52,202 nt of DNA from a virus. Location: IMG/VR virus record IMGVR_UViG_3300000154_000010, one strand, 5' to 3'. This document shows positions 1,999-24,596 of this stretch, in pieces; positions within the stretch are counted from its first letter, which is position 1; every line of letters begins with the position of its first letter. Under the pieces are notes generated by a model. It was not told the origin of the DNA and made no database searches. It saw only the letters and a list, made by a program, of their open reading frames with translations. The position numbers and the translations under genes were made by a program.

Positions 1999-2238
1999 TT
2001 ATAATCCCTTTTTAACTAATCTAACGTATCTTGCTAATTCATTAGCCTCAATACCAAGTGCAGTAACTACTTGACCTAAAATGGCACCAATTTTCTTTTT
2101 GTTTAAATTTGCACCTTTTGTGGCTTCGATAAACTTATTCATATGTCGTTTTACTTGTGCTGGGATTGGAGCGTCAAATGCATCACCTTCCTCAGATACT
2201 ATTTCTCTAATCATTTCTCTTAATTGTGTTTTTGTCAT
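1999..2238 (-). CDS. Hypothetical protein with TKTQLRE-type leader
   Basis: Starts MTKTQLREMIREIVSEE; GGAG RBS upstream. Confidence 0.8.
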   Translation of the reverse strand: MTKTQLREMIREIVSEEGDAFDAPIPAQVKRHMNKFIEATKGANLNKKKIGAILGQVVTALGIEANELARYVRLVKKGL

Positions 2239-2240
2239 TG

Positions 2241-2855
2241 TTACTCTCCTCTAATAATGTCGTTAATAATTTCTTCTACTTTACAGTATTTGTTACACGT
2301 TCTACCATCTTCTACTTTCTCTACTCCTTCTTTAAGTGGATATAAAAATGCACCGTGTGTGCTTGGATTACTGACAAAATCAAATGCAATTAACTCAAAA
2401 TCATCTCCTACTTGTTGACCATCACCCTCCTTTAGTGGTTCTACTGAACCCATACCTCTTGACGAAATACCTAATTTTATTCCTGCCTTAAATAATTCCG
2501 TTAGAATATTTCCTGATGGTGTCCCTAATACTTCTACTGTTCCTACTAAGTTTTTTCCTTCCCAATGCATTTCAGTAATATTGTGAGATACATTTTGTAA
2601 ATTTACCACGGATGATTCTGGATGGTCTAATTCACCCATTGCTCGTTTTTGATTAATAAATCCTTCAGAATATTTCGTTGCTTCACGAGCTAATATCTTG
2701 CCTGGATAAACTCTACCATTCTGGTTTTTTGCATCTGCTCGCTGTAATACTCCATGCACTACGAGACGACCCTGATTAGTTTTTAGTGATTCAGTTATTT
2801 GTTCCCGTGAAATTTCAAACGGGAGATAATCGACAATCAACTGCCTATTACTCAT
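2241..2855 (-). CDS. gp21: T4-like prohead core protease
   Basis: Motifs GVLQRADAKNQNGRVYP, GELDHPES, GISSRGMGS, FDFVSNPSTHGA typical of gp21-family proteases. Confidence 0.93.
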   Translation of the reverse strand: MSNRQLIVDYLPFEISREQITESLKTNQGRLVVHGVLQRADAKNQNGRVYPGKILAREATKYSEGFINQKRAMGELDHPESSVVNLQNVSHNITEMHWEGKNLVGTVEVLGTPSGNILTELFKAGIKLGISSRGMGSVEPLKEGDGQQVGDDFELIAFDFVSNPSTHGAFLYPLKEGVEKVEDGRTCNKYCKVEEIINDIIRGE

Positions 2856-3181
2856 TATATTCTCCTATTGATAATTCTATCATGTAATTCCGTGAAATTG
2901 TAACTTGATTTTTTTGATTCTGTAATTGATCTGTATTGTTTTCCGTTTACTGTGATTTCAGCACCATCGTCTACCTTAGCATCCTGTACTTTTTGTCTTG
3001 TTGAATGAGATTTAGTGTAAGTTGGTTGGTCTGCTCTATCTAAATCATCCCACCAATCTTCTTCTAATTTATTTATTTGATGTCGTTTCATTACATCTTC
3101 AAATGTAGGTAGTGGATCACCAAATTCCCTCTTTACAAAAAATCTCTCATAATTTTCTTGTAATATGTGTTTTTTTGTCAT
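2855..3181 (-). CDS. Hypothetical protein with FGDPLPT module
   Basis: Shares N-terminal (KREFGDPLPTFEDVMK..EDWWDD) and C-terminal (I.GKQ.R.I.E) motifs with 3191-3967. Confidence 0.8.
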   Translation of the reverse strand: MTKKHILQENYERFFVKREFGDPLPTFEDVMKRHQINKLEEDWWDDLDRADQPTYTKSHSTRQKVQDAKVDDGAEITVNGKQYRSITESKKSSYNFTELHDRIINRRI

Positions 3182-3190
3182 TTTAATCTC

Positions 3191-3967
3191 CTATCTCTTA
3201 AATCTTTTGTAAAACTCTGAAAATTCATATTTTGATTTTGGTTCTTTTTCCACTTCACTAATTCTACGAAACTGTTTTCCATCAATCATAAGTGTTTCTT
3301 GGTTTAATTCATTACCAGTTCTGGGGGATTTGGCACCAACTACCTTCTCCATGCGTCCGAGTTCTCTCCTACTTTTTCTAAATTCTTCTCTATCATCATC
3401 AACAATTGATTGAATCCTTGATATTTCTTCTTCATCACCCGTTTCTTTTGCATCGTCCAACTCCCCCTTTGAAAAAGTAAGGTTTTCTTCGGCGGTATCA
3501 TAATCATCTTCAATTTTTTCCTGATTAGCAGTATAATATGTTTTACGAGATGCAACGAATTCTTTTCTATCACCATCAACAATTGATTGAATCCTTGATA
3601 TTTCTTCTTCATCGCCCATTGCTTTTGCATCGTCCAACTCCCCCTTTGAAAAAGTAAGGTTTTCTCCAGCAGTAGCATAATCATCTTTAATTTTTTGTGG
3701 GTCTAATTTTTCTTCACCACTTGGTCCTTCACCACTCGGTTCTTCACCACCATCATCATCATCAGCTTGTTGTGCTTGTTTTGAACCTGGATGGGCTTTT
3801 ATATATTGTGCCTGTGCTGATGCATCCATATCATCCCACCAATCTTCTTGTAATTTACTTTCTTGATGTTGTTTCATTACATCTTCAAGTGTTGGAAGTG
3901 GATCACCAAATTTTCTTTTTGTGAATCCAGGTGTACTTTCGTTTATTAATTTTTTTAATTTTATCAC
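3191..3967 (-). CDS. Hypothetical protein with MIKLKKLINE leader, FGDPLPT module and internal tandem repeat
   Basis: GTG start; acidic; 59-aa-period internal duplication. Confidence 0.85.
   Translation of the reverse strand: MIKLKKLINESTPGFTKRKFGDPLPTLEDVMKQHQESKLQEDWWDDMDASAQAQYIKAHPGSKQAQQADDDDGGEEPSGEGPSGEEKLDPQKIKDDYATAGENLTFSKGELDDAKAMGDEEEISRIQSIVDGDRKEFVASRKTYYTANQEKIEDDYDTAEENLTFSKGELDDAKETGDEEEISRIQSIVDDDREEFRKSRRELGRMEKVVGAKSPRTGNELNQETLMIDGKQFRRISEVEKEPKSKYEFSEFYKRFKR
3380..3691 (-). repeat. Intragenic direct repeat, two copies of about 135 nt, period 177 nt
   Basis: IKDDYATAGENLTFSKGELDDAKAMGDEEEISRIQSIVDGDRKEF vs IEDDYDTAEENLTFSKGELDDAKETGDEEEISRIQSIVDDDREEF; aacaattgattgaatccttga at 3401 and 3578. 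Confidence 0.95.
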
Positions 3968-3968
3968 A

Positions 3969-4349
3969 TTACTTCTCCGTTTTCATAAAATCATATTCTT
4001 GATTTTTAAAAATTTGTTCAAATTCATCTACATAATCTTTTGCTAACATAATTCTTTGTCTCTTTGGAAATATGTCTCTATCGTTTCCACCGAACTCTTT
4101 AACATACTTCTTAGCTCCATCATTGACAAGATATACAAATCCTTTCATGGCTAATGATGAATTATACTTTCCCTTTTGTTTCTTTTTAGATAAATTCTTT
4201 AATATTGGAATATATGTACCATTATATAAACGAGAATCATTATCAATGTAGAGTTTTAATTCTTCCATTTCACCAGAAAGACTGCGTTCAGTTAATAGTT
4301 GAATTTCTTCTTTGATTATTTCTCTTAATTGTGTTTTGGTTATTTTCAT
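3969..4349 (-). CDS. Hypothetical protein with MKITKTQLREIIKEE leader
   Basis: Leader, then LLTE, then a distinct domain. Confidence 0.85.
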   Translation of the reverse strand: MKITKTQLREIIKEEIQLLTERSLSGEMEELKLYIDNDSRLYNGTYIPILKNLSKKKQKGKYNSSLAMKGFVYLVNDGAKKYVKEFGGNDRDIFPKRQRIMLAKDYVDEFEQIFKNQEYDFMKTEK

Positions 4350-4360
4350 TTTATTTGTTC

Positions 4361-4639
4361 CTATATACCATCGACATTAAATTTTATACCACTTCCTTTT
4401 AGGGCTTTATAAATTTTATCGGCTACACTTTTATCAATATAACCACTAAAATCAAAAAAAGTTGAAGTTTTTTCATATTTAACATTTGGAAACTGTTTCT
4501 TTAATAGTGATGATATTTTTATACTTTGTATAGAATTTTTAGCATCAATAGCAAAATTTGAATTATTTTCTATAAGATAAATTTCTTCTCTAATTATTTC
4601 TTTTAATTGTGCTTTAGTTAATTCCAATAATGTCTTCAT
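4361..4639 (-). CDS. Hypothetical protein with TKAQLKEIIREE leader variant
   Basis: MKTLLELTKAQLKEIIREEIYLIE; ATGA-coupled. Confidence 0.8.
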   Translation of the reverse strand: MKTLLELTKAQLKEIIREEIYLIENNSNFAIDAKNSIQSIKISSLLKKQFPNVKYEKTSTFFDFSGYIDKSVADKIYKALKGSGIKFNVDGI

Positions 4640-4878
4640 TTCATTTTCCCTATTATTTTAGTCAGCCGAGATATCATATCCAACATCCCAGGTACAGATC
4701 TATAGTATTTTTCAGCCCATCCTTCTACTTTACCTTTATATTTAGTTGCATTGAAAATCTCATTTCTCAACGTATTCAACCCATCAACTAACATCTTAGG
4801 TGCATCATCGGGATCTATATAAGCTTCAGTTACTTCTTCTTTGATTATTTGTCTTAATTGTGTTTTAGTTATTTTCAT
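4636..4878 (-). CDS. Hypothetical protein with MKITKTQLRQIIKEE leader
   Basis: Leader motif; ATGA overlaps at both ends. Confidence 0.85.
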   Translation of the reverse strand: MKITKTQLRQIIKEEVTEAYIDPDDAPKMLVDGLNTLRNEIFNATKYKGKVEGWAEKYYRSVPGMLDMISRLTKIIGKMK

Positions 4879-5063: not shown

Positions 5064-5071
5064 TTTAGGCC

Positions 5072-5668
5072 TTAATACAGTTTCCCAATTTTATTGGATA
5101 ATTTCACCAATTTTTCACTAATCTTGCCCATGGCTTTGTGAGTGTTTTTCCAGTAGCTTCTGGAATCAATGGACAGCTCGGTTTTTAGTTTGACATTCAT
5201 CTTAACTAACTTATCTAACTCATTTAGTTTATCACGGACTTCTCTCATTGACTGACCAATTTTTTGTTTAGCACTCATCGATTCATCATTTCTGTAATCA
5301 TGATACTTTCCCTCTCTTACTTTTGATTTGTGATTTTTCATGATACCAGCTAAAGTTGGAAGTGGATCACCGAATTTCCTGTTGGTAAATCCTGGAGTTT
5401 TTGATTCGTTTATAGACTCTTTTCTCAATTTTGGGTTCTTTGTGACATATAAACCAGTTCCACGAGTTGGTTCTTCGTGACCTTTCGTGTATCCAGCCTT
5501 TCCTTTTTTAGTACCCTTTTTATTACTACCACTGAAAGCGTGTGGTGTATTATAACTACCACCTACACTTGCAGTTGAATTTGCCTCATCTAATTCTTGT
5601 TTAATAAGTTCACGGACGAGTTTTCGTATTAGACTTTCCCTATTTAACGACATTTCTAAGTTCTCCAA
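5072..5668 (-). CDS. Hypothetical protein with ESINE linker and FGDPLPT module (start may be 5653)
   Basis: LIRKLVRELIKQELDE, KLRKESINE, TPGFTNRKFGDPLPT. Confidence 0.8.
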   Translation of the reverse strand: MENLEMSLNRESLIRKLVRELIKQELDEANSTASVGGSYNTPHAFSGSNKKGTKKGKAGYTKGHEEPTRGTGLYVTKNPKLRKESINESKTPGFTNRKFGDPLPTLAGIMKNHKSKVREGKYHDYRNDESMSAKQKIGQSMREVRDKLNELDKLVKMNVKLKTELSIDSRSYWKNTHKAMGKISEKLVKLSNKIGKLY

Positions 5669-6506
5669 TAAGTGAATAATATCTCATTAGTGATACAACC
5701 TGCTTATCTCTAACAATTTTACCTTTTGTTAGAGTATCAGCTTGTGCTATAGATTCTTTTAACTTAATTTTAGTAATTTTATCAGTAATCTTTGGTAGTG
5801 ATTTAGTCAAAATCTCTTTTACCTTTTTAACTTCACCGTTGATAAATTCTCTTAATGAATTTGTATTAGAAATGTTATTTACATATTCTTTTAATAGATT
5901 TCGTTGCATTGAATTAAGAGTTTTATATTTACCATTAAAATTATCCACCATTAACTGATAAGACAACAATCGTAAATCTGTATCTTCTTTTTTGAATTCA
6001 GCAAGAGTTTTATTGTCTGTATTTCTCGGTTTTGTTTTATTTCGTGTGATGTGTTCCATTATAGTAAATGTACTATTTACTTCATCTGCTGGATCAAATA
6101 CCGGAGTAGTTTCTGCAAGAAATGACTTATATATTGAAGCATATACCTTGTAATTAGGTATTCTCACATTAAAAAAATCTTCTACTTTATAATTTTCTTT
6201 AATTTTCTTAATTAAATTATATTTTTCAGTTCGTAATTTTTTGTTCTGTAGTTTTTCCCTTGACTTTAAAACTACTTCAAGTAATTTTTCAGCTTTCCGT
6301 GGTGAATTATAATTTTCCTTTAATAAAACTTGATAGAGTTGATTCTCTTTACCTAACTCCGTTCCCTCATTGAAAAATTTCTTTAAAATTTCAACTGATT
6401 TGCTTTTCGCATTATCATTCATCACGTCTACTGTGATCTGACGAGATAGTAATTCGAAAAGTATCCCAGTATTCTTAATTTTACTATGACGTACTCTTTG
6501 ACTCAT
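5640..6506 (-). CDS. Hypothetical protein, probable head-assembly component
   Basis: 288-aa helical, basic ORF directly downstream of the portal gene with its own RBS; function inferred from position only. Confidence 0.55.
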   Translation of the reverse strand: MSQRVRHSKIKNTGILFELLSRQITVDVMNDNAKSKSVEILKKFFNEGTELGKENQLYQVLLKENYNSPRKAEKLLEVVLKSREKLQNKKLRTEKYNLIKKIKENYKVEDFFNVRIPNYKVYASIYKSFLAETTPVFDPADEVNSTFTIMEHITRNKTKPRNTDNKTLAEFKKEDTDLRLLSYQLMVDNFNGKYKTLNSMQRNLLKEYVNNISNTNSLREFINGEVKKVKEILTKSLPKITDKITKIKLKESIAQADTLTKGKIVRDKQVVSLMRYYSLIGELRNVVK

Positions 6507-6563: not shown

Positions 6564-8423
6564 TCAATCATTTATTTCGTTACTTAACGATGATGATAAT
6601 TCATTTTTATATTCTTCTTCTACATCACTAGCTTCAAATAAAATCTTCCTATCTTCTTTACCAATTTTACCTAAACTTTTCTTTAATGTATCGTAGTGTG
6701 CTAATGCGAGTCCATATTTCGGACTACCACTACTTGCCTTTCTTTTATCATGTGACCCTAATGGATCACGACCTCTGATACTCGAATCTTTACCATATTT
6801 TGGACCTTCTTTTGGACGACCACTTCCTGGCCAACCGTCGTCTGGCATTTCCATATCTAATTCTTTTCCGGTTCTCCCAAATGGACTACCACCACCTTGT
6901 TGATCTTGACCTACCATAGCACCTTGAGTTCCAACTGCTTCCTCACTTTGAACTGGGTCATTTCCCTCTTGTTCTATCTGATCCCATCTGAATTTACGTT
7001 TTTGGTCTTTAATAATACCGAGTCTAACATTCTTCTTCTCTTCTTCTGTAAACTTGAAAATGTTATTGTAAATCCATTCTGTATCTGCTATTTTGGAGTC
7101 CATCATACTTGACGCAAGACTTTGTTTGTTGTTCCATAACTCTATCTTTTCTTCTTCGTATATTGTGGATGGGTTTGTAAGTTTCAATTCAAAATTGACT
7201 AGGTCAGCGTCAGTATAACCTTGTGCATATAAATGAACGATACCAATTTTAGTTAATTCACTTGTTACTATTCGTTGGAGTCGTTCTATTGTTCTTGCGA
7301 AACGAACATCTTCGGCTGCAAGAGTAGCTTTTCCACTTACGTTTTCATCATAACCAAGAAATGGTTTTGGGATTTTTAATGCTGCTAGGAGTTTATTTCT
7401 CAAATACTCTATATCGTCCACAGCTTCGTATGTAAGACCACTTAAAGTTTCTATTGACGTTCCACTATCGCCACCACGAACAGGGATAAAAAAGTCCTCT
7501 GTAAGATTTTGGATGTTGTATTTTAAATTGTAATCACCAGTTGCTGTATCCATAACTGGAGCTTTCTTCATTTTATTTGTAACTTTTTGCATGAAGTTAT
7601 CAACTTCTGCAGGTGGGATGTTTCCAATGTCAAATTTGAAAATTCTCTTTTCTGGTGCTCTCATAATACGATGGATTAACATAGCGTCTTCCATAAGTGA
7701 AAGTTGTTTCCAGATTTTACGACCACCTTCAATCATACTTTTACCATAAGGTAGGAAATTTGAATCTGATAGTAATCTGAAATGTGCCATTTCATAATTT
7801 TCCAATTCTTTGTTGCCATTCATATTTGAACTATGTCTCGCGTCACCGTGCTCCACTACGAACTGTGTCATGTATGGATTATCTGGATCTTCACCCTCTA
7901 TACGAGTAACATCATACGCTGAAAGTGGTACTATATTTGTAATGCCATATTTTTCCTTAATATCCAAATAAAGATAGAAGTCACCGTATTTGCACATATT
8001 ACGAACCCATGGCCAGAGATTGAATTCTATATTCAAAACATCGTAATATAAATTATGTAATATATCATGAATATTTTCATTTTCAGATCTAATTTCTAAC
8101 ACTTTACCATATTCGGATCGTAACGTACTTTCATCAGCATAAATATCCAATGCACTTGACAGGATTGCGTCATTATCCATTTCTTCATAATCTTTGAATA
8201 ATCCAAGACGTTGTGCTTGGAAACTAATTGCTTGAGCGTGTCCATATCCACCAGTTGTTAAATTGGTGTGTATTCTGGACCATCTGTCCACAAGACTGTT
8301 TCTTGTAGCGTTCTGAACTTGGTTTGTATCAGCAATTTTTAACTTTTTACCACCAGCGTGTCTAACGATAGCATTTGTGCTGAATAATCGGCGGAGACGG
8401 CTCCGTAAACTTTTATCTGCCAT
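6564..8423 (-). CDS. gp20: T4-like portal protein
   Basis: ALDIYADE, WVRNMCKYGD, EDAMLIHRIMRAPEKRIF, EDFFIPVRGG, YLRNKLLAALKIP, EDVRFARTIERLQ. Confidence 0.96.
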   Translation of the reverse strand: MADKSLRSRLRRLFSTNAIVRHAGGKKLKIADTNQVQNATRNSLVDRWSRIHTNLTTGGYGHAQAISFQAQRLGLFKDYEEMDNDAILSSALDIYADESTLRSEYGKVLEIRSENENIHDILHNLYYDVLNIEFNLWPWVRNMCKYGDFYLYLDIKEKYGITNIVPLSAYDVTRIEGEDPDNPYMTQFVVEHGDARHSSNMNGNKELENYEMAHFRLLSDSNFLPYGKSMIEGGRKIWKQLSLMEDAMLIHRIMRAPEKRIFKFDIGNIPPAEVDNFMQKVTNKMKKAPVMDTATGDYNLKYNIQNLTEDFFIPVRGGDSGTSIETLSGLTYEAVDDIEYLRNKLLAALKIPKPFLGYDENVSGKATLAAEDVRFARTIERLQRIVTSELTKIGIVHLYAQGYTDADLVNFELKLTNPSTIYEEEKIELWNNKQSLASSMMDSKIADTEWIYNNIFKFTEEEKKNVRLGIIKDQKRKFRWDQIEQEGNDPVQSEEAVGTQGAMVGQDQQGGGSPFGRTGKELDMEMPDDGWPGSGRPKEGPKYGKDSSIRGRDPLGSHDKRKASSGSPKYGLALAHYDTLKKSLGKIGKEDRKILFEASDVEEEYKNELSSSLSNEIND

Positions 8424-9216: not shown

Positions 9217-10794
9217 TTATTTTATTAACCATGTTAAATTTTCTTTTTCTCCAGCAACTTCCATTTCCCAAGAATCATTTCTATTATCCATTGGTTGGTA
9301 AACTGCTTCGTAATCTAATGTTCTACTTAATACATCTTTCTGTAATGCTATTCCTTCTGATTTTAATCTTAATGCTGTATCTCTAACCCACATACCTATT
9401 GCAAGACTGATTGAAAGATCATCATTATATCCTTCCATTGCCTGTGCCTTAAAATTGTGGTAAATAAATACAAACAATTCTTCTATCAATCTAGATGAAT
9501 GAACTATTACAGTTTTTTCTCTAAAATACTCTTCTAATTTTGCTATTACTAATGGTCGTGTTTTCATGGTCATACTGAAACCCGGGACCATCTTTTGATC
9601 CATATTTCTATATTTATTTGATATTTGACGCTGAACATCCACGTAGTGTAAATCCTTACTCGTATAAAACAAATTATCATAATCTCTGTCTATAACTTGC
9701 TGTATTGCTGCCCAACCTATTGATGCATTTTCAATAACGAGTAACGCGTTGTTATATTCTACTGCAGTATTCATACATAAATTACCAAAATCTTTTGTGG
9801 ATATTTTTCCTTTATATTCCGCTACTTGTTCCATTTTCTGTACATCTATTACGTGGAATGCTGAAAAGTCATTACCATCACCACGGGCAACGTCAGCACT
9901 CAATACATAATCTTGTGTGTAATCTGGTGGTCTCCATATCCATAAATTACTATCAAATCCCCTTTTTTCCATTGGTTCTTCAATGTGGGTATTTTTATAT
10001 TCTTCAAGTATAACACCATCAATTACAGTTTGACCAGATGTGATGAATGAGCAATCACATTCTTGTGCTGCCATTGAAGGACCTAATAGTTTATCTTGGT
10101 CATCTCTCCAATCTTGTTCCCTATCTGGGTGTACTGTCCAATGGAGTTTAATGAAATTCCAATCATTTTTCCCTTCTTCAGCTCCAGCCCATGTTTTATG
10201 AAACCAATTTCCTACTCCATTGGGTGTGCTTAATGCAATACATTGACCACCAGTAGATAAGGTACTTTGTGCCGCTGTCCATATTGCATCAATTTTTGGA
10301 ATAAATGAGGCTTCATCGAGTATCAATAATGATAATGCTTCTGATCTACCACTATCTTCACCACTGGAAATTGCCTTTACTTGTGAACCATTTGAATATT
10401 TTAAAGATAATTTATTATCCTCCGTACAACTGGATTTTACCCAATTTGGAAGATTAGCATGCATAACTCGTATTTTTGTTACGAGATTTTTTGCTGTATC
10501 CTGTTTGGTAGCAATAACCAATATATTCTTGTCTGTTTGAAAGGTCATCATCCATAATGAATAACCAGCTACGAGAGTGGATATTCCTAACTGACGAGCT
10601 TTGAGAATAATATTATAATTGTGCTTATTAAAATCTTCTAATGTTTTTTCTTGGAAATCATATAAGGAAAATGGAATTTTACCGTCTATTGGATGTTGAA
10701 TGACAGCATACTTTTTTAGAAAGTATATTGGGTCTTTAGCACACTTTATGTATTCGGCTTTTATTATTTCTTTTATGTTTTGGCTATTACTCAT
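9217..10794 (-). CDS. gp17: T4-like terminase large subunit
   Basis: IILKARQLGIST, LLILDEASFI (Walker B), STPNG, QECDCSF, nuclease motif ADVARGDGNDFSAF. Confidence 0.96.
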   Translation of the reverse strand: MSNSQNIKEIIKAEYIKCAKDPIYFLKKYAVIQHPIDGKIPFSLYDFQEKTLEDFNKHNYNIILKARQLGISTLVAGYSLWMMTFQTDKNILVIATKQDTAKNLVTKIRVMHANLPNWVKSSCTEDNKLSLKYSNGSQVKAISSGEDSGRSEALSLLILDEASFIPKIDAIWTAAQSTLSTGGQCIALSTPNGVGNWFHKTWAGAEEGKNDWNFIKLHWTVHPDREQDWRDDQDKLLGPSMAAQECDCSFITSGQTVIDGVILEEYKNTHIEEPMEKRGFDSNLWIWRPPDYTQDYVLSADVARGDGNDFSAFHVIDVQKMEQVAEYKGKISTKDFGNLCMNTAVEYNNALLVIENASIGWAAIQQVIDRDYDNLFYTSKDLHYVDVQRQISNKYRNMDQKMVPGFSMTMKTRPLVIAKLEEYFREKTVIVHSSRLIEELFVFIYHNFKAQAMEGYNDDLSISLAIGMWVRDTALRLKSEGIALQKDVLSRTLDYEAVYQPMDNRNDSWEMEVAGEKENLTWLIK

Positions 10795-12883: not shown

Positions 12884-12967
12884 TTAATTTCTCCAGCTTA
12901 TCATGAGATTTTTGAACTTCCCCGTTTTGATCACATCTCCCACGGAAACATCTATTGTAATTGCCAT
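12884..12967 (-). pseudogene. Orphaned 5' stub of the GKFKN-family gene
   Basis: TAATG-coupled ORF MAITIDVSVGDVIKTGKFKNLMISWRN*; similarity to 11785-12093 ends abruptly after GKFKN. Confidence 0.75.
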
Positions 12968-15861: not shown

Positions 15862-15864
15862 TTT

Positions 15865-16764
15865 TTATAACTCCTTTGGAATTGGGAATTTATATCTTGT
15901 TAGTGTAGTTTTGTATGCATCAAATATTTTCCTATTCAACTTTTTAAATAAAAAGTCCTTTGACTTCATCAACTTATATAATTTTTCAAATGAATCAATA
16001 TCTTTAAACGTGCGTTTTGATCCGAATAAAAATTTTGCTAACTTATCCATATCCCCAATTACTTTTCTTATTTTTAGTTTAACTCGTTTTCCCTTTTCGT
16101 TTGTGGTAAAATCAACTAACTCTACACCATTTTTCCAATTCATTTGAAATTTTCTCTTAACGTCAGGATCTTTTGTTTTTAATATCGTTTGAGAAAAAAT
16201 ATCTGCAATTAATAAATTACGATATACTGCTTTGTATTTACTTCTATAATCTGATGCAGAAAGTGCTTTTTTCATGAATTCTAAATCACCAATCATAACA
16301 TCAATCTGAACATATCCAGGATCACCTAAATCATTTCCATCTTTATCTACAGCGTTTAGTTGAGTACCACTTTTATCTACAAGTGGGGTGATGAAGTGAG
16401 CCTGTTTTAATCCCTTATTAATTTTATGATCCTTAATTTTAGTTCTACCTAAAAACTTATCTAACTCTCCCCAAAATTCAGTTGCTTCACCGTTAAACTT
16501 CATAATTTTAGCCATGACTGATACATCTACTGCAATATCAATATCCCCTAAAAATGGTTTTTTATAGTTTCCTATGATTGTGTATTTTAATTTTTTTAGA
16601 CCAGCATCTACGAGAGATTTTTTGATTGTAGCATCCAGATGTTCACTTGGGACTACTGAATTTACATCACTAAAAACATTACCACCTTCAAGTAATAAAC
16701 GTTTAAAATGTCTCTTTATTTCTTCTCGTATTAATTTTCTTACACTATTTTCCGTTATCATCAA
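15865..16764 (-). CDS. Pol-beta-superfamily nucleotidyltransferase-like protein with leader
   Basis: Leader VRKLIREEIK..LLLE-GGNVF; IIGN..GDIDIAV...VQIDVM. Confidence 0.7.
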   Translation of the reverse strand: MMITENSVRKLIREEIKRHFKRLLLEGGNVFSDVNSVVPSEHLDATIKKSLVDAGLKKLKYTIIGNYKKPFLGDIDIAVDVSVMAKIMKFNGEATEFWGELDKFLGRTKIKDHKINKGLKQAHFITPLVDKSGTQLNAVDKDGNDLGDPGYVQIDVMIGDLEFMKKALSASDYRSKYKAVYRNLLIADIFSQTILKTKDPDVKRKFQMNWKNGVELVDFTTNEKGKRVKLKIRKVIGDMDKLAKFLFGSKRTFKDIDSFEKLYKLMKSKDFLFKKLNRKIFDAYKTTLTRYKFPIPKEL

Positions 16765-16772
16765 TTCTCTCC

Positions 16773-18476
16773 CTAATCTACATTACGGTCTAAATACATT
16801 TGAGATACAACTTCTGGAGTATTTTTCTTTAATAAGTTTTTCATATTCTTAATTCTATTAATTGTCAATATTATACTTTTTCGTGTATCTTCACGTTTCT
16901 TTGGAATGGTTACTAATTCATCACCATCACTTTTAAATTCAGCGGCTATTGATTTAACACTTGCTTCAAGTTTAACCAAATAACCTTCAAGTCCAGTTGG
17001 GTCTACCTTAATGCGTTTAACCAACTCTTTTTCTGCGTTCTGTAAATCATTCATGTATTTCCAATTGCGTTCTTTACGAGCAGTAAACTGATTTTTATCT
17101 ACTATCTTGACCACATTTCCATCAGGAACATATAATACAAGTCCTTCATCTTCTTCACCAAATGCACGTTGAAAATCTACTTTCAATACTTTACCTTTCA
17201 TCTTTTTACCAATCAAATTTGCTATTCTCTGTATTTGATATTTGATTTTTTTATGGTGTGGTTTTCTTGCTGGGGTATTTAATAAATTTCCATATTTTTC
17301 AATCATCTTACTTAACAAAATTTCATAACTTTCTTCAAAATGAACTTGTTTTAAATTTACTTTTGGATTTGAAAAGAATTTAATGGTAGTTTTCTTATTT
17401 GCTTCTTTAGCAAATACATCGTGAAATGCTATTGGAGTTTCTACACCATCAACTATTATTTTAAATAATACTACTATACCATCACCAATTTTTTCTGGAT
17501 CATATAATACTATATTGTAATCCCATGATGGTATTGCCTCACATTCAATAGATATGTTTTTAGTATTACCTTCAATGCCAAATTTCTTTGCATATTTATC
17601 TACTATTTTCTTATATGGAATTTTCTTTAATAATTTATGATACTTTACGAAATCTTCATAAAAATATAATGAAGGATAATCTTTTTCGTGTTTAACAGTT
17701 TTAGTTTTTGATCCTGAATAAAACCCTCCACCCCTTATTCCAAATTGGAAAAAGTGACCATCTACCTTTTCATTAACTTCAAATTTTGTATTGTCGGCAT
17801 TCCACAGTTTTAAGAAGTTTAATAAATCCTTTGGTTTCATATCCTCTATATGTTTAATACCTTCTGTTAAAACTCCCTCTGTGATACCAAATTTCGTCTT
17901 AAAGATACCATATACGGACTTATTAACTTTACCGTATAGAGTTTTAAATGCATCCTTTGGATTATCACCTTTGAATGCATTTCTAACAACAGTTCCACTA
18001 ATAGTTTTTCCATCAATTTTCATTTGAAGTTGTGGGACAGTAATTACATATCCTTTTGTTTCAAAACTTTCCATATCTTTACCTGTATATGGGTTATAAT
18101 ACTTTCCACTTAATCTACCAGCATCCTTTTCACCGAGACCAACTACCAACGCAGTAGTTTTCTCATCAAACTTAGACTTTATCTCTACAGTATTATATGG
18201 ATTTTTAACTTGAATGATGTTAGATTTTGGAACTTTAAACATTTTAGATATTATAGCTTCTTTTTCCTTAAAATCAAATGGTGATTTACCATCAGTTTTA
18301 TTTGAAGTTCCTATAAATACATTTTTCTTACCGAATTTTTTAACTAAGAATTCGTATGCGTGATGATGTCCTTTATGATATGGTTGGAATCTACCGGAGT
18401 ATACTGCTATGGTTTTTTTTATTTCACCAGTATCTTCCAATAATTCTTGTATTAACTGTGTTGCTAATTTACTCAT
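16773..18476 (-). CDS. HIGH-motif cytidylyl/nucleotidyltransferase fused to a putative KxDG ligase-fold domain
   Basis: YSGRFQPYHKGH at the N-terminus; after a GVLTE linker, VNEKVDG (motif I), ECEAI, EGLVL, VKIVDK. Confidence 0.7.
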   Translation of the reverse strand: MSKLATQLIQELLEDTGEIKKTIAVYSGRFQPYHKGHHHAYEFLVKKFGKKNVFIGTSNKTDGKSPFDFKEKEAIISKMFKVPKSNIIQVKNPYNTVEIKSKFDEKTTALVVGLGEKDAGRLSGKYYNPYTGKDMESFETKGYVITVPQLQMKIDGKTISGTVVRNAFKGDNPKDAFKTLYGKVNKSVYGIFKTKFGITEGVLTEGIKHIEDMKPKDLLNFLKLWNADNTKFEVNEKVDGHFFQFGIRGGGFYSGSKTKTVKHEKDYPSLYFYEDFVKYHKLLKKIPYKKIVDKYAKKFGIEGNTKNISIECEAIPSWDYNIVLYDPEKIGDGIVVLFKIIVDGVETPIAFHDVFAKEANKKTTIKFFSNPKVNLKQVHFEESYEILLSKMIEKYGNLLNTPARKPHHKKIKYQIQRIANLIGKKMKGKVLKVDFQRAFGEEDEGLVLYVPDGNVVKIVDKNQFTARKERNWKYMNDLQNAEKELVKRIKVDPTGLEGYLVKLEASVKSIAAEFKSDGDELVTIPKKREDTRKSIILTINRIKNMKNLLKKNTPEVVSQMYLDRNVD

Positions 18477-18625
18477 CTTCGTCCACCTTTATCAAAGTCC
18501 TTTGAAAACTTCTGTAATTTACCAAATGCTCTAAACTTTTTCATTTTCTCTTGTTTACTCCATTTCATTTTATCAAATACTTTCATTCTCTCCGTTAGTG
18601 GAAGTAGTGATGACAATTTAATCAT
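18473..18625 (-). CDS. Small basic protein (50 aa) with MIKLSSLLPLTE leader
   Basis: Manual translation; below the ORF-track cutoff; ATGA overlap with the next gene. Confidence 0.75.
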   Translation of the reverse strand: MIKLSSLLPLTERMKVFDKMKWSKQEKMKKFRAFGKLQKFSKDFDKGGRR

Positions 18626-19142
18626 ATTTTACCAACTGTGACTTCATTTTTATATGTGGATATTTCCGTTTTAATTTCTTTACTGCATTTACATTTTTAT
18701 TGGAATCATCGAAAAATGCTATATCATCGTATCCTTTTTTGATTTGGCCTTCTACCCAATCCGCTTTCTTTTGTGGATTTGCATCTGCAAGTGCTACTAC
18801 AAATACATCTCCGTGGCCACTATCCTTAAAAAATTGTCTGACTGGTTTATATTTTGATCTGGCTGTAAGTATAGTTAGACGACGATTTCCAACTGCACTA
18901 TGTATTCTCTTAAATACCTTAAACATACTTTTTATTTTTTTAGGGTCTATTACTTTATCAAATTCTGAAAAATCTATTTCATCACCTGGTTCTGGTTTAT
19001 ATACTGCGTATAGTCCTGGTGTCATTGTTATTTTCTTTCCATTACGCATTAAATAAACTTTAGAATTAGATTTTACTAGTGTATCATCAAAATCAAATAC
19101 TCGGAGTTTTTTTTCTATTAATAAATCTTTAAGTTTTATCAC
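18618..19142 (-). CDS. HAD-superfamily phosphatase with MIKLKDLLIE leader
   Basis: RVFDFDDTL (DxD), ILTAR, FFDDS..N motifs. Confidence 0.85.
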   Translation of the reverse strand: MIKLKDLLIEKKLRVFDFDDTLVKSNSKVYLMRNGKKITMTPGLYAVYKPEPGDEIDFSEFDKVIDPKKIKSMFKVFKRIHSAVGNRRLTILTARSKYKPVRQFFKDSGHGDVFVVALADANPQKKADWVEGQIKKGYDDIAFFDDSNKNVNAVKKLKRKYPHIKMKSQLVKYD

Positions 19143-19233
19143 TACCTAATTCCATCACATAATATAGTATTACAAACACCACCGCACTCAATAATAAAAA
19201 ATCAAATTTTGCTACTATGAAATCACTAAACAT
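19129..19233 (-). CDS. Small single-TM peptide (34 aa)
   Basis: MFSDFIVAKFDFLLLSAVVFVILYYVMELGSDKT; TAATG-coupled. Confidence 0.55.
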   Translation of the reverse strand: MFSDFIVAKFDFLLLSAVVFVILYYVMELGSDKT

Positions 19234-19595
19234 TACTTATCTAGCTTCCAACGTTTATCTGCTATTTTCTTCATACTTTTAAGAATAGTTTCTAATGCAA
19301 CTACACTCTGATAATTATGTTTCCAATTTGGTTTAACAAAATCTTTATTTGTCCTGTTGGCCGTATTAAATATTTTATTAGCATGACCAAGAACTGTTTT
19401 AGCATATATTCTAAATTTTTTAGTTAGTTCTTCCCTTCCACTTTCACTAATAATCTCTCTAATCTTTTTTCGTAATACTCGTTCTTGTAATTCATCTTTT
19501 GCCATCATCATCTCCCGTTTAGATATTTTAACTTTTTGTTTTCCGATTTCTCTCGGTTTGTCTATGTGAAATTGTGCTATTATTTTATATCCCAA
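19233..19595 (-). CDS. Hypothetical protein with internal LRKKIREIISE motif
   Basis: ORF track. Confidence 0.75.
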   Translation of the reverse strand: MGYKIIAQFHIDKPREIGKQKVKISKREMMMAKDELQERVLRKKIREIISESGREELTKKFRIYAKTVLGHANKIFNTANRTNKDFVKPNWKHNYQSVVALETILKSMKKIADKRWKLDK

Positions 19596-19816
19596 GTTTT
19601 AATAGATTTTAAAACATAAGTAAGCGTTCCAACCTCATAATTAAATGCCTTTGCTAATTTATCATTTTTAAGATGTAAAATCATTGAGTATTTCTTAAAT
19701 GTTTCTATTGAAGATTTAAGTGTTTTTACTATAGCCATTTTATTTCCAGCACCTGCATATTCATTCAAAAGTTCTTCTCTGATGAGTTCTCTTAGTTGTG
19801 TTTTAGTTATTTTCAT
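19580..19816 (-). CDS. Hypothetical protein with MKITKTQLRELIREELLNE leader
   Basis: Leader motif; GGAG RBS. Confidence 0.85.
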   Translation of the reverse strand: MKITKTQLRELIREELLNEYAGAGNKMAIVKTLKSSIETFKKYSMILHLKNDKLAKAFNYEVGTLTYVLKSIKTWDIK

Positions 19817-19838: not shown

Positions 19839-20099
19839 TCACTCAAATTTCATTGGTTCTTGTGCCACTTTGTCTGCAAGTGTACCTATACCAAAACTGA
19901 CCTGGGATAAAAGTTCAAGCCAAGAATCCAAATTTTCCTTTCCTTTTATTGAAGATTTTACCTCTTTGATAGCCTTACCCAACATCTTTTCATAAACCAG
20001 TAAATGTTTTAATAATTCCTTTTTCCTCGTTGGGTCATCCCACCCCTCATTTAACTCTTCCCGAATCATTTCTTTTAATTGTGTTTTAGTTATTTTCAT
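19839..20099 (-). CDS. Hypothetical protein with MKITKTQLKEMIREELNE leader (start 20099 preferred over 20114)
   Basis: GGAGG upstream of the ATG at 20099, which begins the shared leader. Confidence 0.85.
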   Translation of the reverse strand: MKITKTQLKEMIREELNEGWDDPTRKKELLKHLLVYEKMLGKAIKEVKSSIKGKENLDSWLELLSQVSFGIGTLADKVAQEPMKFE

Positions 20100-20103
20100 T
20101 CTA

Positions 20104-20385
20104 CTATCCTCCAAACCTACTGTTTTTCCACATCAACTTCTGCAATCTTTCATACTCACGTTGTTGTTCTGGTGATATTTTAATTGTTTTCAATGGCCCA
20201 AATATTCTTTGTTTTCTACTGTTTTGTTTATAAACATCATCCATCTTCTTTTCATCTTTATCTACTGCAATTACTTTTTTAAGGTTGCTACTTACCACTA
20301 TCCAATATCCAGCCTTTCTCATTTCTTGTGCCTTGTCAATAGTAATGTCTACTTTTTCGTTTAGTAAATCTATTAGTTTAATCAT
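20104..20385 (-). CDS. Hypothetical protein with MIKLIDLLNE leader
   Basis: Leader motif; ATGA-coupled. Confidence 0.85.
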   Translation of the reverse strand: MIKLIDLLNEKVDITIDKAQEMRKAGYWIVVSSNLKKVIAVDKDEKKMDDVYKQNSRKQRIFGPLKTIKISPEQQREYERLQKLMWKNSRFGG

Positions 20386-20939
20386 TTTATACCCATCAAC
20401 TCTAATTCTTTTTCCCAGAATAATCCGTATACGGCTAATGCATTGACTTTAACTAACACATTCATTGTGTTTCCAACGTGAAATACTTCTTGTTCATTTC
20501 TTTTTAATCCAACTTCTTTTCCAATCTTACCTAACCACTTATAATTACCAACAAAATTATTATCTATTTTAGTAATAATAATTGATTCTGGATAATCGGG
20601 CTTAGCATTATATTTAGCAAACTTTTGAGCTAAATCAAAATTATATGTAAATGATTGTACTGGTCGTCTTGACCTATACTTCATTTTTAAAAACAACCAT
20701 TTGTCATCTCGTTTAGCTATTTTTAGTTTTTTTAAATCTTTTTTAGATATAGCCGTTCCTCTATACACTTCACCACTAATCGGGTTTAATTCTTTTGAGT
20801 ATTTAGATTTTTTTGAATACAAAGATTTAATAGTAGAATCTATTTTAGTAGTTCTTTCACCGCCAGCTTTCATATACTTTTTTAACATTTCTATTTCAGT
20901 ATCTAAGTTTTCTGTCAATAAATATTTTAGTTTGATCAT
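20382..20939 (-). CDS. Putative ADP-ribosyltransferase (R-S-E clade) with MIKLKYLLTE leader
   Basis: VYRGT ... QSFT..F..AQKFA ... EQEV catalytic pattern. Confidence 0.65.
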   Translation of the reverse strand: MIKLKYLLTENLDTEIEMLKKYMKAGGERTTKIDSTIKSLYSKKSKYSKELNPISGEVYRGTAISKKDLKKLKIAKRDDKWLFLKMKYRSRRPVQSFTYNFDLAQKFAKYNAKPDYPESIIITKIDNNFVGNYKWLGKIGKEVGLKRNEQEVFHVGNTMNVLVKVNALAVYGLFWEKELELMGIK

Positions 20940-20975
20940 AATTTATCTCCTAATAATAAAAAGCTATGTTTAGTT

Positions 20976-21071: not shown

Positions 21072-21086
21072 TTTACTTCTCCTTAT

Positions 21087-21356
21087 TTACCCCTTTAATA
21101 ATTCGTGATATAATTTGTCAAGCATAATTTTGGTAAAAGCGTCATATTCACTTAATGCACTTTTAATCAATTTATTTGAAGCACTCGAATATTCTTTTGA
21201 TTTGGATTTAGCGAACTTTTTTAATTCCTTACCAAAATCTTCAGCTTTATTTCCAATAGCCAAATACTCATCGTCATCATGTGGATGATAATAATCATTC
21301 TCATTCAAGAGCTCTTCCCGAATCATTTCTTTTAATTGTGTTTTAGATATTTTCAC
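21087..21356 (-). CDS. Hypothetical protein with MKISKTQLKEMIREELLNE leader
   Basis: GTG start; 35 nt (21312-21346) identical to 20055-20089. Confidence 0.85.
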   Translation of the reverse strand: MKISKTQLKEMIREELLNENDYYHPHDDDEYLAIGNKAEDFGKELKKFAKSKSKEYSSASNKLIKSALSEYDAFTKIMLDKLYHELLKG

Positions 21357-21357
21357 T

Positions 21358-21960
21358 TCATTTCTCCAATGAATTTACAATGTTCATAATGCCCTTATTT
21401 CGTTTTTGGGCTCCATTATGTGTGGATAATCCCTTTTTACCTGCAAAATTCTTTTCCAATGACTTGACTATTTTTGGGTATGCTATTCCACCACCACTTT
21501 CGGCCCATTTTCTACTTCCCCTTTCTATTAATTTAGAGGCTTTATTTAATTTCATCGTCATTATCTTGGAAGTCTTTTCATGCCAAAATTTAACTTCATT
21601 ATCTTCAATTTGTAATATGACTATTTTACTAATACCATTTAACTCAATCCAATATACAGTTAAGGGGGCAATATACATTGATTCATTTAATGTATTTTCT
21701 TTAACTAAAATTTTTGATATATACGTTGAAATTCTGAATTTAGTTCCGGCTACAGGGACCAAACCCTTATCTTTAACTTTCTGTGTAATATCATATTTAC
21801 CATTTCCCAATTCTTTAATGAACCAATCACTTTTACCGACTCTACCTTTCCATATTTGTTTTTCTATCATATGTTTAATGGCTCGCTTGTCGGTAGCGGT
21901 AAGGTGTCCGTCTAATACTTTTATCTTTATTTCATTGAGTAGGTCTTTGAGTTTAATCAT
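21358..21960 (-). CDS. Two-module hypothetical protein with MIKLKDLLNE leader and internal TLNE linker
   Basis: Leader motif; KENTLNE-SMY midway. Confidence 0.85.
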   Translation of the reverse strand: MIKLKDLLNEIKIKVLDGHLTATDKRAIKHMIEKQIWKGRVGKSDWFIKELGNGKYDITQKVKDKGLVPVAGTKFRISTYISKILVKENTLNESMYIAPLTVYWIELNGISKIVILQIEDNEVKFWHEKTSKIMTMKLNKASKLIERGSRKWAESGGGIAYPKIVKSLEKNFAGKKGLSTHNGAQKRNKGIMNIVNSLEK

Positions 21961-21972
21961 AATTTATTCCTA

Positions 21973-22881
21973 TTAAAAGTAGGCGTCACCACCTCTATCT
22001 GAAATCCATTTGTTGATGTCTTTGGGTTCATTTGTTATTTCTATTTTATTGCCAAACATCTTTTTAGCTTTTTCTATTTCTTTTCTTTTTTGTTTACCTT
22101 CAGTTGAATTATAGTCATCTTCAAATACTTCGTCGTCATAGTAATACATATCTTCTATATACCCCAATACATCCACTACCATAATTTTGTCAACCACTAA
22201 TTCGTTCCACCACCAATCACCTGTAAATGGGTGTGGTTCTCCGAAATGTTTATTTAATTGTTTTTGATGTGTCTTTATTACTTTGACAACACCCTTCTCA
22301 TATAAATTGAATACTTTTTTCACTCCCCTTTTATCTAACGTATTTCCATCTTTATCTTCTAAGTGACTAAACAGGCCGTGTACATTTCTTTTATATTTTA
22401 ACTTTAACTTGCGTATAATGTCATCAAAAATAAAAGTCATCTTTCCTTTTATTTTATCACCTATTTTACTATCTGATGCTTTATTTAATAAATAAGTCAA
22501 TGACGATGAAAATTGTGGTTCAGTTGATACCCACCTCATTCCAGTTTCATCTGGTCGAGACATTATATCATCGGAAGAAGCTATTTTCAATTTACCTATC
22601 ATATGGACAAGAAACCCACCATCGGTTCTAATTCCACTTAGATTTCCTATATTACTTTGAGAAGTTGTAGTAAATGTTGAAAGTGCCTTTGATGTACCTT
22701 GAAGTTTTTTTAGATTTACCAATCCTTTAAAATCCGTTACATGAAATGTTGGAATATCTACATCACCTACAATTACATCTACCACTTTTTTTGATAATGG
22801 AATCATAGTAGAATCCATCATATTTAGTTGAGAGTCTTCCCAAGATATTACTTCATATAATAAATCTTTTAATTTAATCAT
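21973..22881 (-). CDS. Hypothetical protein with MIKLKDLLYE leader (weak ART-like pattern)
   Basis: Leader is clear; FHVT..STFT..WNELVV is only suggestive of an ART fold. Confidence 0.75.
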   Translation of the reverse strand: MIKLKDLLYEVISWEDSQLNMMDSTMIPLSKKVVDVIVGDVDIPTFHVTDFKGLVNLKKLQGTSKALSTFTTTSQSNIGNLSGIRTDGGFLVHMIGKLKIASSDDIMSRPDETGMRWVSTEPQFSSSLTYLLNKASDSKIGDKIKGKMTFIFDDIIRKLKLKYKRNVHGLFSHLEDKDGNTLDKRGVKKVFNLYEKGVVKVIKTHQKQLNKHFGEPHPFTGDWWWNELVVDKIMVVDVLGYIEDMYYYDDEVFEDDYNSTEGKQKRKEIEKAKKMFGNKIEITNEPKDINKWISDRGGDAYF

Positions 22882-22884
22882 AAT

Positions 22885-23205
22885 TTATCTCGGTGGGTTA
22901 TAATCCCACGGTCCCCAATGTTCGTGTTTTAACATATTTATCATTGTTTCTTCAACTGAATATTTGTGAATCTTTTTACCATTCGCTGGTATTCCACCTA
23001 ACTCATAGTATTTCTTTTTATTAAGTATTATTTTTCTATTATTACTGAAATCTAATACCATCCCACCTTTCTCAATCCAACAATGACCGAATGGTTTGCC
23101 ATTAGTGGATAGTATCGCAAGACCATGACACAATACTAAATCTTTATCGTGTCCTTTACTAACAAATCTACCGTTAGCTTCGTAGCAATCACCTTTACCT
23201 GCCAC
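22885..23205 (-). CDS. Small papain/transglutaminase-like protein (putative Cys-His-Asp triad)
   Basis: GDCYE ... GHCWIE ... VLDFS. Confidence 0.55.
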   Translation of the reverse strand: MAGKGDCYEANGRFVSKGHDKDLVLCHGLAILSTNGKPFGHCWIEKGGMVLDFSNNRKIILNKKKYYELGGIPANGKKIHKYSVEETMINMLKHEHWGPWDYNPPR

Positions 23206-23981
23206 TATCTCTTCTTCAACATTTTTTGTTTTTCAATCCACTTTTTAGCTTGTCTATTCTTAATAGGTGCCTTTATAAATTTACCAATACCTTTACCGAC
23301 CAACATATTAAATTTACTTGTTGCTTGTTTTGTACTTAAATGTTTATTATTGTCAACTAATAGGAAATTGGCATTTCCAAATAACCCCTGGAAATAAGCC
23401 ATATTCTTTTGAACTGAATGCCAATATTTTTCAACAACATGAGCTGGTAATCTTCGTGGTCTTTCTTCATTTCGCTGTTGTGCAATTTCCAATGAAGTAT
23501 TTACAAATACCATGAATGTATCATATCCCAATTTCATTAAATCTTGTCGTTCATTCTTTACATCTTTAAATTTATGACCCGTACCATCAATAATAACACC
23601 CAATCTACCTTCTGTATAATTTTTTAGTCGTTGTTTACTTAATGCTTTTGTACGAGTTCTCATACCACTGTAATCATCGTATTCTGGGTCAGTAAGTTGT
23701 TTGAATAACTCTTCTGGCATATTGTCAATGTCGACAGTTCCAAAATATTTTTTCATAAATTTTTCTAATTCAGTATCTTGATTAACCATTTTTAATCCGG
23801 TATAGGATACGCTAACTTTTTTGGGTATTCCGAATAATTGAGATGCAACGTAGGTTTTGCCTGAATTGTGGACATTAACTTCTGATTTTCCCACATAATA
23901 ATTATGATTATTATTTATTCGTAAATCATATACATATTTTTTATCATATTTTATTAGCTTAATTGATTTAATTTTCACCAT
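23205..23981 (-). CDS. Split-intein C-fragment (39 aa) fused to the C-extein of a zeta-toxin/AAA_33-like P-loop kinase
   Basis: IntC block F VYDLRINNNHNYYV and block G VHN/S (23865-23981), then SGKT (rest of Walker A), VNQD and GVIIDGTG. Confidence 0.92.
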   Translation of the reverse strand: MVKIKSIKLIKYDKKYVYDLRINNNHNYYVGKSEVNVHNSGKTYVASQLFGIPKKVSVSYTGLKMVNQDTELEKFMKKYFGTVDIDNMPEELFKQLTDPEYDDYSGMRTRTKALSKQRLKNYTEGRLGVIIDGTGHKFKDVKNERQDLMKLGYDTFMVFVNTSLEIAQQRNEERPRRLPAHVVEKYWHSVQKNMAYFQGLFGNANFLLVDNNKHLSTKQATSKFNMLVGKGIGKFIKAPIKNRQAKKWIEKQKMLKKR

Positions 23982-24234
23982 ATTCTCCGTGATTTTTAAT
24001 AAATCTAATATTTTGTTTTTCTGACCAAAATATTTCTTTATTTTTTAATAGTGATTTTATATTTACCATTGATATATGACAATAATCACCATCCCATTTT
24101 TTACGTGAATTAACATAGCTACAGTAACGTCTATTATTAAATTTAAAATTACACCTATCACATTTATATGATATACTTTGACCTGTATGTGGGTTTCCTG
24201 TTTTAGTATAAATTAAATCAGTTGCTAATAACAT
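23968..24234 (-). CDS. Cys-rich ORF between the split-intein halves (possible endonuclease remnant)
   Basis: CDRC..RYC..YC; overlaps both flanking intein ORFs; different frame. Confidence 0.65.
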   Translation of the reverse strand: MLLATDLIYTKTGNPHTGQSISYKCDRCNFKFNNRRYCSYVNSRKKWDGDYCHISMVNIKSLLKNKEIFWSEKQNIRFIKNHGEYGEN

Positions 24235-24596
24235 AATACGTCATCACCATCTTTCAAATCCTTTGCCATAATCCAGTTACCATTCGATAGTCTTATTTCA
24301 TGATCTAATGTACAAACAACAGTTTCACCAGTTTCCAATTCTATATTTACCATTTCAGTATCAGCATCGTACTTAAAAAGTTCAACTACTTCTGAAATTT
24401 CTGATTTACCTTTTGTGTTCAATGTCCAAACTCTTTCACCTTTAATTACTTCAGATATTTTAGTATATCCAGTTTCAGTTTTTATTAATGTATTTTCATC
24501 GAAGCAACCTGGACCACCGGCAAGGAATACCGCTTTGAATATGCCTGGATCATTTACTCCCTCGTTTAATTGTATAAGATCTTTTAATTTAATCAT
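24225..24596 (-). CDS. Kinase N-extein (30 aa, MIKLKDLIQLNE leader, ..FLAGGPG) fused to split-intein N-fragment (93 aa)
   Basis: Block A CFDENTLI starts at codon 31 (24506); block B TLDH; ends KDLKDGDDVLCY*. Confidence 0.92.
   Translation of the reverse strand: MIKLKDLIQLNEGVNDPGIFKAVFLAGGPGCFDENTLIKTETGYTKISEVIKGERVWTLNTKGKSEISEVVELFKYDADTEMVNIELETGETVVCTLDHEIRLSNGNWIMAKDLKDGDDVLCY

Follow-up and report, generated by a model that had tools for sequence, protein, structure and literature searches.

The viral DNA stretch IMGVR_UViG_3300000154_000010 of IMG/VR (52,202 nucleotides (nt); the whole of it is referred to below as the window) encodes many otherwise unrelated proteins that begin with one of a few short shared peptides, here called leaders. 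According to our analysis these leaders are probably removable propeptides comparable to the capsid targeting sequences of phage T4, a reading to which we assign a probability of roughly 60% and for which the support, drawn from sequences and models, is circumstantial. By analogy, the system is most likely a much enlarged version of the loading of proteins into the T4 capsid. An earlier note on this DNA had proposed a modular payload system whose enzymes are loaded into the prohead, matured there and injected. What stands of this proposal is a circumstantial case built on a gp21-family protease, leader ends of the form [LIV]-x-Glu, a match with T4 propeptides, leader swaps between relatives and a cargo with an ADP-ribosyltransferase fold, whereas loading, maturation and injection would follow from the comparison with T4.

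All 17 gene starts that had been listed as bearing one of two N-terminal motifs do so (17/17), with coordinates that hold, and all of these genes lie on the minus strand. The type A motif, MKITKTQL[KR]E[MIL]I[KR]EE.., heads the genes starting at 2238, 4349, 4878, 19816, 20099 and 21356; the gene starting at 4639 has an offset variant, and those at 5653 and 16764 have looser forms. The type B motif, MIKL..L[LI]..E, heads the genes starting at 3967, 18625, 19142, 20385, 20939, 21960, 22881 and 24596. On the coding strand there are nine copies of the type B core IKLxxL[LI], of which eight directly follow a start codon, against a mean of 0.125 in the shuffled proteome; the type A core occurs seven times and never in shuffles, and neither core is found on the other strand of the window. 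Leader genes make up 17 of the 40 genes in 1-25 kb and none of the 31 in 25-52 kb (Fisher p about 1e-5), which bears out the earlier statement that the glycan-synthesis island occupying the latter part is free of leaders. If looser forms at 3181, 13647, 14217 and 19595 and a polyprotein are included, the first count rises to 22 of 40. The gene starting at 14217 is headed by a third leader type (F..F[LI]VEN), which is common to Flavobacterium phage immuto (FDLKKFLVENKL); immuto also has type A-like leaders (MKKSQLREIIRKEL), despite a terminase identity of only 53%, and together its two kinds of leader head about 11 genes within 41 kb. Behind the leaders the proteins are unrelated by BLASTP, as had been claimed, with the exception of the genes starting at 3967, 3181 and 5653, which have a common FGDPLPT module. 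A Sec, Tat or lipoprotein signal peptide was rejected because the leaders, as read from their sequences, are charged and amphipathic and have no hydrophobic stretch.

The window appears to cover the complete 52-kb contig. Its left half holds a T4-type head module and the right half (25-52 kb) the glycan-synthesis island, with every gene on the minus strand. The head module comprises, in order, the large terminase (9217-10794), a homing endonuclease, the portal gp20 (6564-8423), a protein of 288 amino acids (aa), a run of small genes, a protease (2241-2855), two small genes and a polyprotein (1-1662). The nearest cultured phages are Microcystis phage Mel-JY01 and immuto, whose terminases are 53-54% identical and whose gene order is alike. 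In IMG/VR, at least 589 contigs encode a related protease, and 80 of these contigs were fetched (proteases 74-94% identical), and the lineage is abundant, uncultured, marine and T4-like. Database names such as Pelagibacter MAG are binning labels and were not taken as host evidence.

The gene at 2241-2855 encodes a prohead maturation protease of the T4 gp21 family (Peptidase_S77), with matches to Pfam PF03420 (1e-25), phrog_207 (8e-52) and PDB 5jbl. It is 31% identical to T4 gp21, and the His (DHP), Ser (SSRG) and Asp of the catalytic triad are aligned; judged by its sequence, this head protease of gp21 type is apparently active. Both leader types end in [LIV]-x-Glu, the type of site that is cut by T4 gp21, and small residues are enriched directly afterwards. 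Type B leaders are 10-12 residues long and end in L-x-E. Type A leaders measure 16-24 residues and have sites at residues 10 and 14 as well as a last [LIV]-x-E at residue 16-24. The earlier description of a 10-residue leader ending in Glu is therefore adequate for type B and wrong for type A, where Glu10 is not the end. Of all columns in an alignment of 72 non-redundant leader proteins, only that of the Glu (residue 10 in the first sequence) comes close to invariance. The residue that follows it (P1') is S/A/G in 45% of type B leaders compared with a background of 18% (p about 1e-6), and S/A/G likewise stands behind 46% of internal [LIV]NE sites compared with 8-11% behind [LIV]ND or [LIV]NK.

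Propeptides of T4 have a targeting role and are removed by gp21 (PMC3012670, PMC5694885). Read from the T4 genome (a slash marks the cut, here, and below the predicted junction), they are MKTYQEFIAE/A in IPII and IPIII, a 19-aa peptide ending ..ITE/A in IPI, MAKINELLRE/S in gp24 and MELITE/L in Alt. Type B leaders and the MAKLKDLLNE of relatives have the same length as that of gp24 and are alike in 5-6 of 10 residues, in peptides that are too short to establish homology.

The leader is a separate, portable module ahead of unrelated folded domains. Orthologues of the protein at 3969-4349 start with type B in seven relatives (L005, L012, L013, L016, L018, L021 and L023) and with type A in the window and in contig L003, the junction lying at the shared LLxE. 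One cargo (GTRWLVGIE...) sits behind type A, behind type B, behind type B plus an FGEPLPT adaptor, or behind an internal linker ending in ITE or INE, and the cargo of 1999-2238 is found in L003 behind an internal leader within a 160-aa protein. Since types A and B substitute for one another on the same gene, share their end and coexist with at least a third type, they are better regarded as interchangeable versions of one signal than as the two address codes that had been suggested. In AlphaFold2 (AF2) models both types lie outside the folded domain and have low confidence. Most apparent cases of leaderless orthologues within related loci were traced to start-codon choice or to a pattern that was too strict. 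Those left standing are P0017, which may be a truncated gene call, and the immuto homologue of a Pol X-like cargo, which begins with MGGNVF exactly behind the junction. This junction (E/GG) is invariant in 17 homologues of the cargo.

Although the leaders had been described as N-terminal, and are so at the gene starts, they also serve as linkers inside polyproteins. The multi-module polyprotein at 1-1662 (minus strand; at least 554 aa, continuing beyond the window; GTG start at 1662 with an AGGA ribosome-binding site) has six [LIV]NE junctions, at residues 137, 230, 314, 404, 466 and 554, with ESVNE or ESINE linkers, and one internal type A-like leader (..TLRKIIREELQSVNE/G). In the homologue P0029, a module of this polyprotein is fused ahead of the Pol X-like cargo with a leader as the linker. 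A type A profile built from seven window leaders and searched in 1.84 billion representatives (E <= 0.001) returned 2033 clusters, and all members looked up were metagenomic. Among the best 150 clusters, a copy is N-terminal in 141, and 109 have at least two copies, which makes them polyproteins with leaders as joints; the Glu occupies residue 18-19 or 21-22, and 47% have G/A/S at P1'.

Most cargo proteins gave no hint of function, almost all leader proteins being orphans when compared with Pfam and PHROGs. One exception is the 185-aa protein at 20382-20939 (type B, MIKLKYLLTE/N), which is predicted to have an ADP-ribosyltransferase fold of the R-S-E class. Its motifs YRG, QSxT and ExE (R-S-ExE) are invariant in 14 homologues and stand in the order of that class. 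The AF2 model has a predicted local distance difference test score (pLDDT) of 90, with residues 1-8 disordered, and its top structural match is the Vis toxin (Foldseek probability 0.99; VIA Z 7.3, root-mean-square deviation 3.2, 134 residues); the majority of the top 50 structural entries are ADP-ribosyltransferases. As T4 Alt is a packaged, gp21-processed ADP-ribosyltransferase, this fold lends independent support to the capsid-loading reading. Some homologues carry a different leader, MRYFKTFESFVNE, which constitutes another swap; it resembles the T4 peptide MKTYQEFIAE, again over a length too short to establish homology.

Three further cargos resemble enzymes of nucleic acid metabolism. The 299-aa protein at 15865-16764 (loose type A, ..KRLLLE/GG) is a predicted Pol X-like nucleotidyltransferase, with Foldseek matches to Pol beta/lambda/mu (E 4e-6); in its AF2 model (pLDDT 90) the leader forms a detached low-confidence helix and the junction falls below pLDDT 50. 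At 18618-19142 a putative HAD phosphatase of 174 aa (type B, MIKLKDLLIE/K) matches phrog_415, the phosphatase part of polynucleotide kinase (2e-8), and its DxDxT motif lies directly behind the leader. The gene at 23205-24596 (type B, MIKLKDLIQLNE/G) encodes a putative P-loop kinase with Hint/intein domains and with AAA_33 and polynucleotide-kinase-like matches. Its Walker A motif is broken by the two intein halves, between which lies a small out-of-frame open reading frame (ORF; 23968-24234). In an 81-kb relative, the orthologue (G003:63385-64161) has the leader but no such interruption. By analogy with T4 IPI*, small orphan cargos may be inhibitors of host defences.

Across the 80 contigs, distinct proteins with leaders amount to 29-40% between the portal and the gp22-like scaffold gene, which in L008, for instance, lies at 16122-17483, to 12% upstream of the terminase and to 4% after the capsid gene. 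The related contigs yielded 72 non-redundant cargo families of 90 residues or more, hardly any of them with a Pfam domain, and the portal-scaffold region is hypervariable between close relatives. In the 81-kb relative, the first 63 kb, mostly glycan island, have no strict MIKL-type leader, and about nine leader-type starts are found, by reading the ORF list, in the last 17 kb, adjoining the head module.

This distribution also bears on the competing explanation that survives best, which we consider unlikely. Leader proteins and polyprotein could be expendable parts of the prohead core or scaffold, like T4 gp67, gp68 and gp22, that are targeted, cut and then degraded and expelled, with no payload. 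Many leader genes do lie between the portal and scaffold genes, where T4 has gp67 and gp68; many of their products are small, charged and helical, with no recognisable domain, and several contain multiple [LIV]xE sites. However, several cargos are confidently folded enzymes with conserved catalytic residues, which makes little sense for a scaffold, and a gene content that is hypervariable between close relatives suits accessory cargo better.

A second alternative, to which we give little credence, places the function mainly in the DNA. The shared starts would then be a cassette of ribosome-binding site, start codon and leader that acts as a recombination joint or as an optimised translation start, and the peptide would have no targeting role. 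In its favour, two type A genes have an identical stretch of about 35 nt in the DNA that encodes their leaders (20055-20089 and 21312-21346), cargo modules are shuffled exactly at leaders and linkers, and the codons are A-rich. The identity suggests recent copying or gene conversion between leaders, and it suggests that leader DNA also mediates exchange. However, the DNA upstream of leader genes is not conserved, and 62 distinct type B leaders begin variously with ATG, GTG or TTG and encode Leu4 by four codons and Ile2 by three, while the residues are fixed. Conservation and selection are on the peptide, not on the DNA. Retention of the motif in immuto at the terminase identity given above, the conserved Glu and small P1' residue, and the in-frame copies inside proteins, which cannot serve as translation starts, argue in the same direction.

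It is very improbable that the leader is a recognition sequence for another enzyme, either a radical-SAM/SPASM protein acting on many substrates like a maturase of ribosomally synthesized and post-translationally modified peptides, for which the window offers a candidate at 33684-34619 and some relatives a CxCGxxCC motif directly behind leader B, or a host protease for which it would be a degron timing protein removal, since the candidate gene belongs to the glycan island, with 9 kb between it and the nearest leader gene, and failed a co-occurrence test, being absent from G002 (82 kb) and G003 (81 kb), two relatives with many leaders, and from the complete genomes of immuto and Mel-JY01, and since nothing ties the leaders to a host degradation signal. 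The radical-SAM/SPASM gene itself is present in G001 and G005 (83% identical). The Cys-rich motif lies between leader B and an S[VI]NE junction in several relatives (L065:3890, L046:9826, L073:11765, L079:12856 and others) and could bind metal.

Several observations weigh against the propeptide reading. The tripeptide [LIV]-x-E is common in this Lys/Glu-rich proteome, so that the argument for a cut site rests on position, invariance and P1' bias and not on the motif alone. Co-occurrence of leaders and protease in related loci arises by construction, because the loci were collected via the protease. Some leader genes lie away from the head module, namely the cluster at 18.4-24.6 kb of the window and, in the unrelated 64-kb contig L089, a pair of neighbouring genes with perfect type A leaders in a setting of methylase and ligase genes; the T4 ip and alt genes are likewise dispersed, and the scatter therefore neither supports nor refutes capsid loading. 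The T4 late-promoter motif TATAAATA is not enriched (13 matches, 15 expected). There is no close cultured relative, as a nucleotide search of cultured phages gave no match to the window; a tblastn search of cultured phages with a type A protein gave none either. To our knowledge, a packaged kinase, phosphatase or polymerase-like enzyme has no precedent in T4.

If the leaders are propeptides, we posit the following sequence of events. During head assembly the leader would bind the scaffolding core, so that the protein becomes enclosed in the prohead. The protease would then cut behind the Glu, both where leaders end and at linkers of the ESVNE type, and free the mature modules, the leader fragments would leave, and the cargo would stay with the DNA and enter the host at infection. 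Likely cargo would comprise the ADP-ribosyltransferase, the Pol X-like nucleotidyltransferase, the P-loop kinase, the HAD phosphatase and many small orphans, and the leader-coding DNA would probably also be a joint for the shuffling of cargo cassettes. On a broader and more tentative view, to which we would not yet give even odds, this abundant marine T4-like lineage carries a combinatorial capsid cargo. Hundreds to thousands of proteins, encoded as single genes or polyproteins, would be loaded via interchangeable leaders, freed by the protease and injected as a fast-evolving first-strike arsenal that includes an ADP-ribosyltransferase and a set of enzymes for DNA/RNA end repair, with leader DNA as the joint at which cassettes are swapped.

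The remaining leader genes of the window, all on the minus strand, fall into the head module, the stretch upstream of the terminase and the cluster at 18.4-24.6 kb. Type A motifs stand at the start of the proteins at 1999-2238 (MTKTQLREMIREIVSE/E; 79 aa), 3969-4349 (..EEIQLLTE/R; 126 aa, upstream of the protease) and 4636-4878 (..IIKEEVTE/A; 80 aa), with the variant at 4361-4639 (MKTLLELTKAQLKEIIREEIYLIE/N; 92 aa). Two genes combine a leader motif with the FGDPLPT adaptor module, one of 108 aa at 2855-3181 with a loose leader (MTKKHILQE/N) and one of 258 aa at 3191-3967 with type B (MIKLKKLINE/S). The 193-aa protein at 5072-5653 has a loose type A leader (..LVRELIKQELDE/A) and an internal ESINE/S ahead of the same module, and its gene position is kept in all relatives. 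This adaptor (..K[RE]FG[DE]xLPTLxxVMKxHQ) lies about 7 residues behind [LIV]-x-E, after leader B or an internal ESINE, and is carried by these three window proteins and by 42 unique proteins in L003-L082. It may act as an additional docking element, or it may form the N-terminus with which the mature proteins function.

Further upstream, the 226-aa protein at 12967-13647 has an embedded type B-like leader (MNKFETKMLKLINE/G), and the same cargo starts with MKKLKNLLKE/G in the relative L026; it is followed by the 189-aa carrier of the third leader type at 13648-14217 (..IGDFIVE/ND). The 567-aa cytidylyltransferase-like protein at 16773-18476 starts with MSKLATQLIQELLE/D, and leader-like peptides with a terminal Glu also head its counterparts in G003 and Mel-JY01; on this basis the protein may be a further large cargo. 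In the cluster, type B motifs stand at the start of the proteins at 18473-18625 (MIKLSSLLPLTE/R; 50 aa), 20104-20385 (MIKLIDLLNE/K; 93 aa), 21358-21960 (MIKLKDLLNE/I; 200 aa) and 21973-22881 (MIKLKDLLYE/V; 302 aa), and type A motifs at the start of those at 19580-19816 (..REELLNE/Y; 78 aa), 19839-20099 (..REELNE/G; 86 aa) and 21087-21356 (GTG start, ..REELLNE/N; 89 aa). An internal type A-like motif (..VLRKKIREIISE/S) is found in the 120-aa protein at 19233-19595.

Next to the portal, the conserved 288-aa protein (5640-6506, minus strand) has no leader and is syntenic in immuto and Mel-JY01. It had no Pfam or PHROG match, and Protein Atlas gave only weak helical look-alikes that were treated as chance; we infer a possible prohead-core partner. 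In the closest relative the portal ORF (L003:3059-7372) codes for 1437 aa, compared with 619 aa in the window, and probably contains an intein or some other sizeable insert. In relatives, the head module also includes a ribosomal protein S21-like gene directly before the gp22-like scaffold gene (L003:19660-19926, L008:15702-15965, L020:16968-17231), and the annotation of Mel-JY01 has such a gene at the same place.

If the propeptide reading is true, the three-protein "load and clip" signal of T4 would be a modest instance of a strategy that abundant ocean phages pursue on a far larger scale. A great many phage proteins that are now orphans, probably including new inhibitors of bacterial defences, would gain a testable role in delivery with the DNA. 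It would also mean that ADP-ribosyltransferase and DNA-repair-type enzymes can be pre-packaged, and that several cargos can be packed together in the form of protease-jointed polyproteins. For the loading of foreign proteins into phage heads, the short leaders would be candidate tags, and the [LIV]-x-E junction rule may aid the annotation of mature protein ends in metagenomic phage genomes.

In the literature we found no description of this leader system and no virion proteome, and the closest known counterpart is the set of T4 proteins IPI, IPII, IPIII, gp24 and Alt. The two systems are alike in a short N-terminal peptide (10 or about 19 residues in T4) on unrelated proteins, in an [LI]-x-Glu end followed by a small residue, in the protease family, encoded in the same head gene cluster, and in one ADP-ribosyltransferase cargo (Alt). 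They differ in scale and in make-up. T4 has a handful of leader proteins, whereas here at least 20 genes in half a genome carry leaders, the 80 contigs contain 72 cargo families, and type A alone accounts for 2033 clusters. The leaders here are of at least three interchangeable types and are reused as internal polyprotein linkers, the FGDPLPT adaptor is an addition, the cargos include DNA/RNA-repair-type enzymes, and types A and B are not similar to MKTYQEFIAE.

The internal-protein loci of T-even phages are polymorphic, encoding diverse proteins in which only the targeting sequence is conserved (PMC3012670). As in the present system, a conserved leader precedes unrelated cargos that are hypervariable and thought to counter host defences, but the T-even phages have one small locus per genome, whereas the distant marine lineage described here has several clusters and polyprotein arrays. 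In the giant phages phiKZ and SPN3US, propeptides of head and ejection proteins are cut by the S80 prohead protease at A/S/G-x-Glu (PMC5694885). Here the likeness lies in the many head-internal proteins processed after Glu, in paralogues with common N-terminal stretches and in multi-site propeptides. However, the protease belongs to another family, the propeptides are mostly longer than 100 residues, and no short portable tag is spread over dozens of unrelated proteins. Encapsulin cargo-loading peptides, finally, are comparable by analogy only. They too are short, portable addresses that send diverse enzymes into a shell of the HK97 fold, but they are usually C-terminal and are not removed by a protease, and their shells neither package nor eject DNA.

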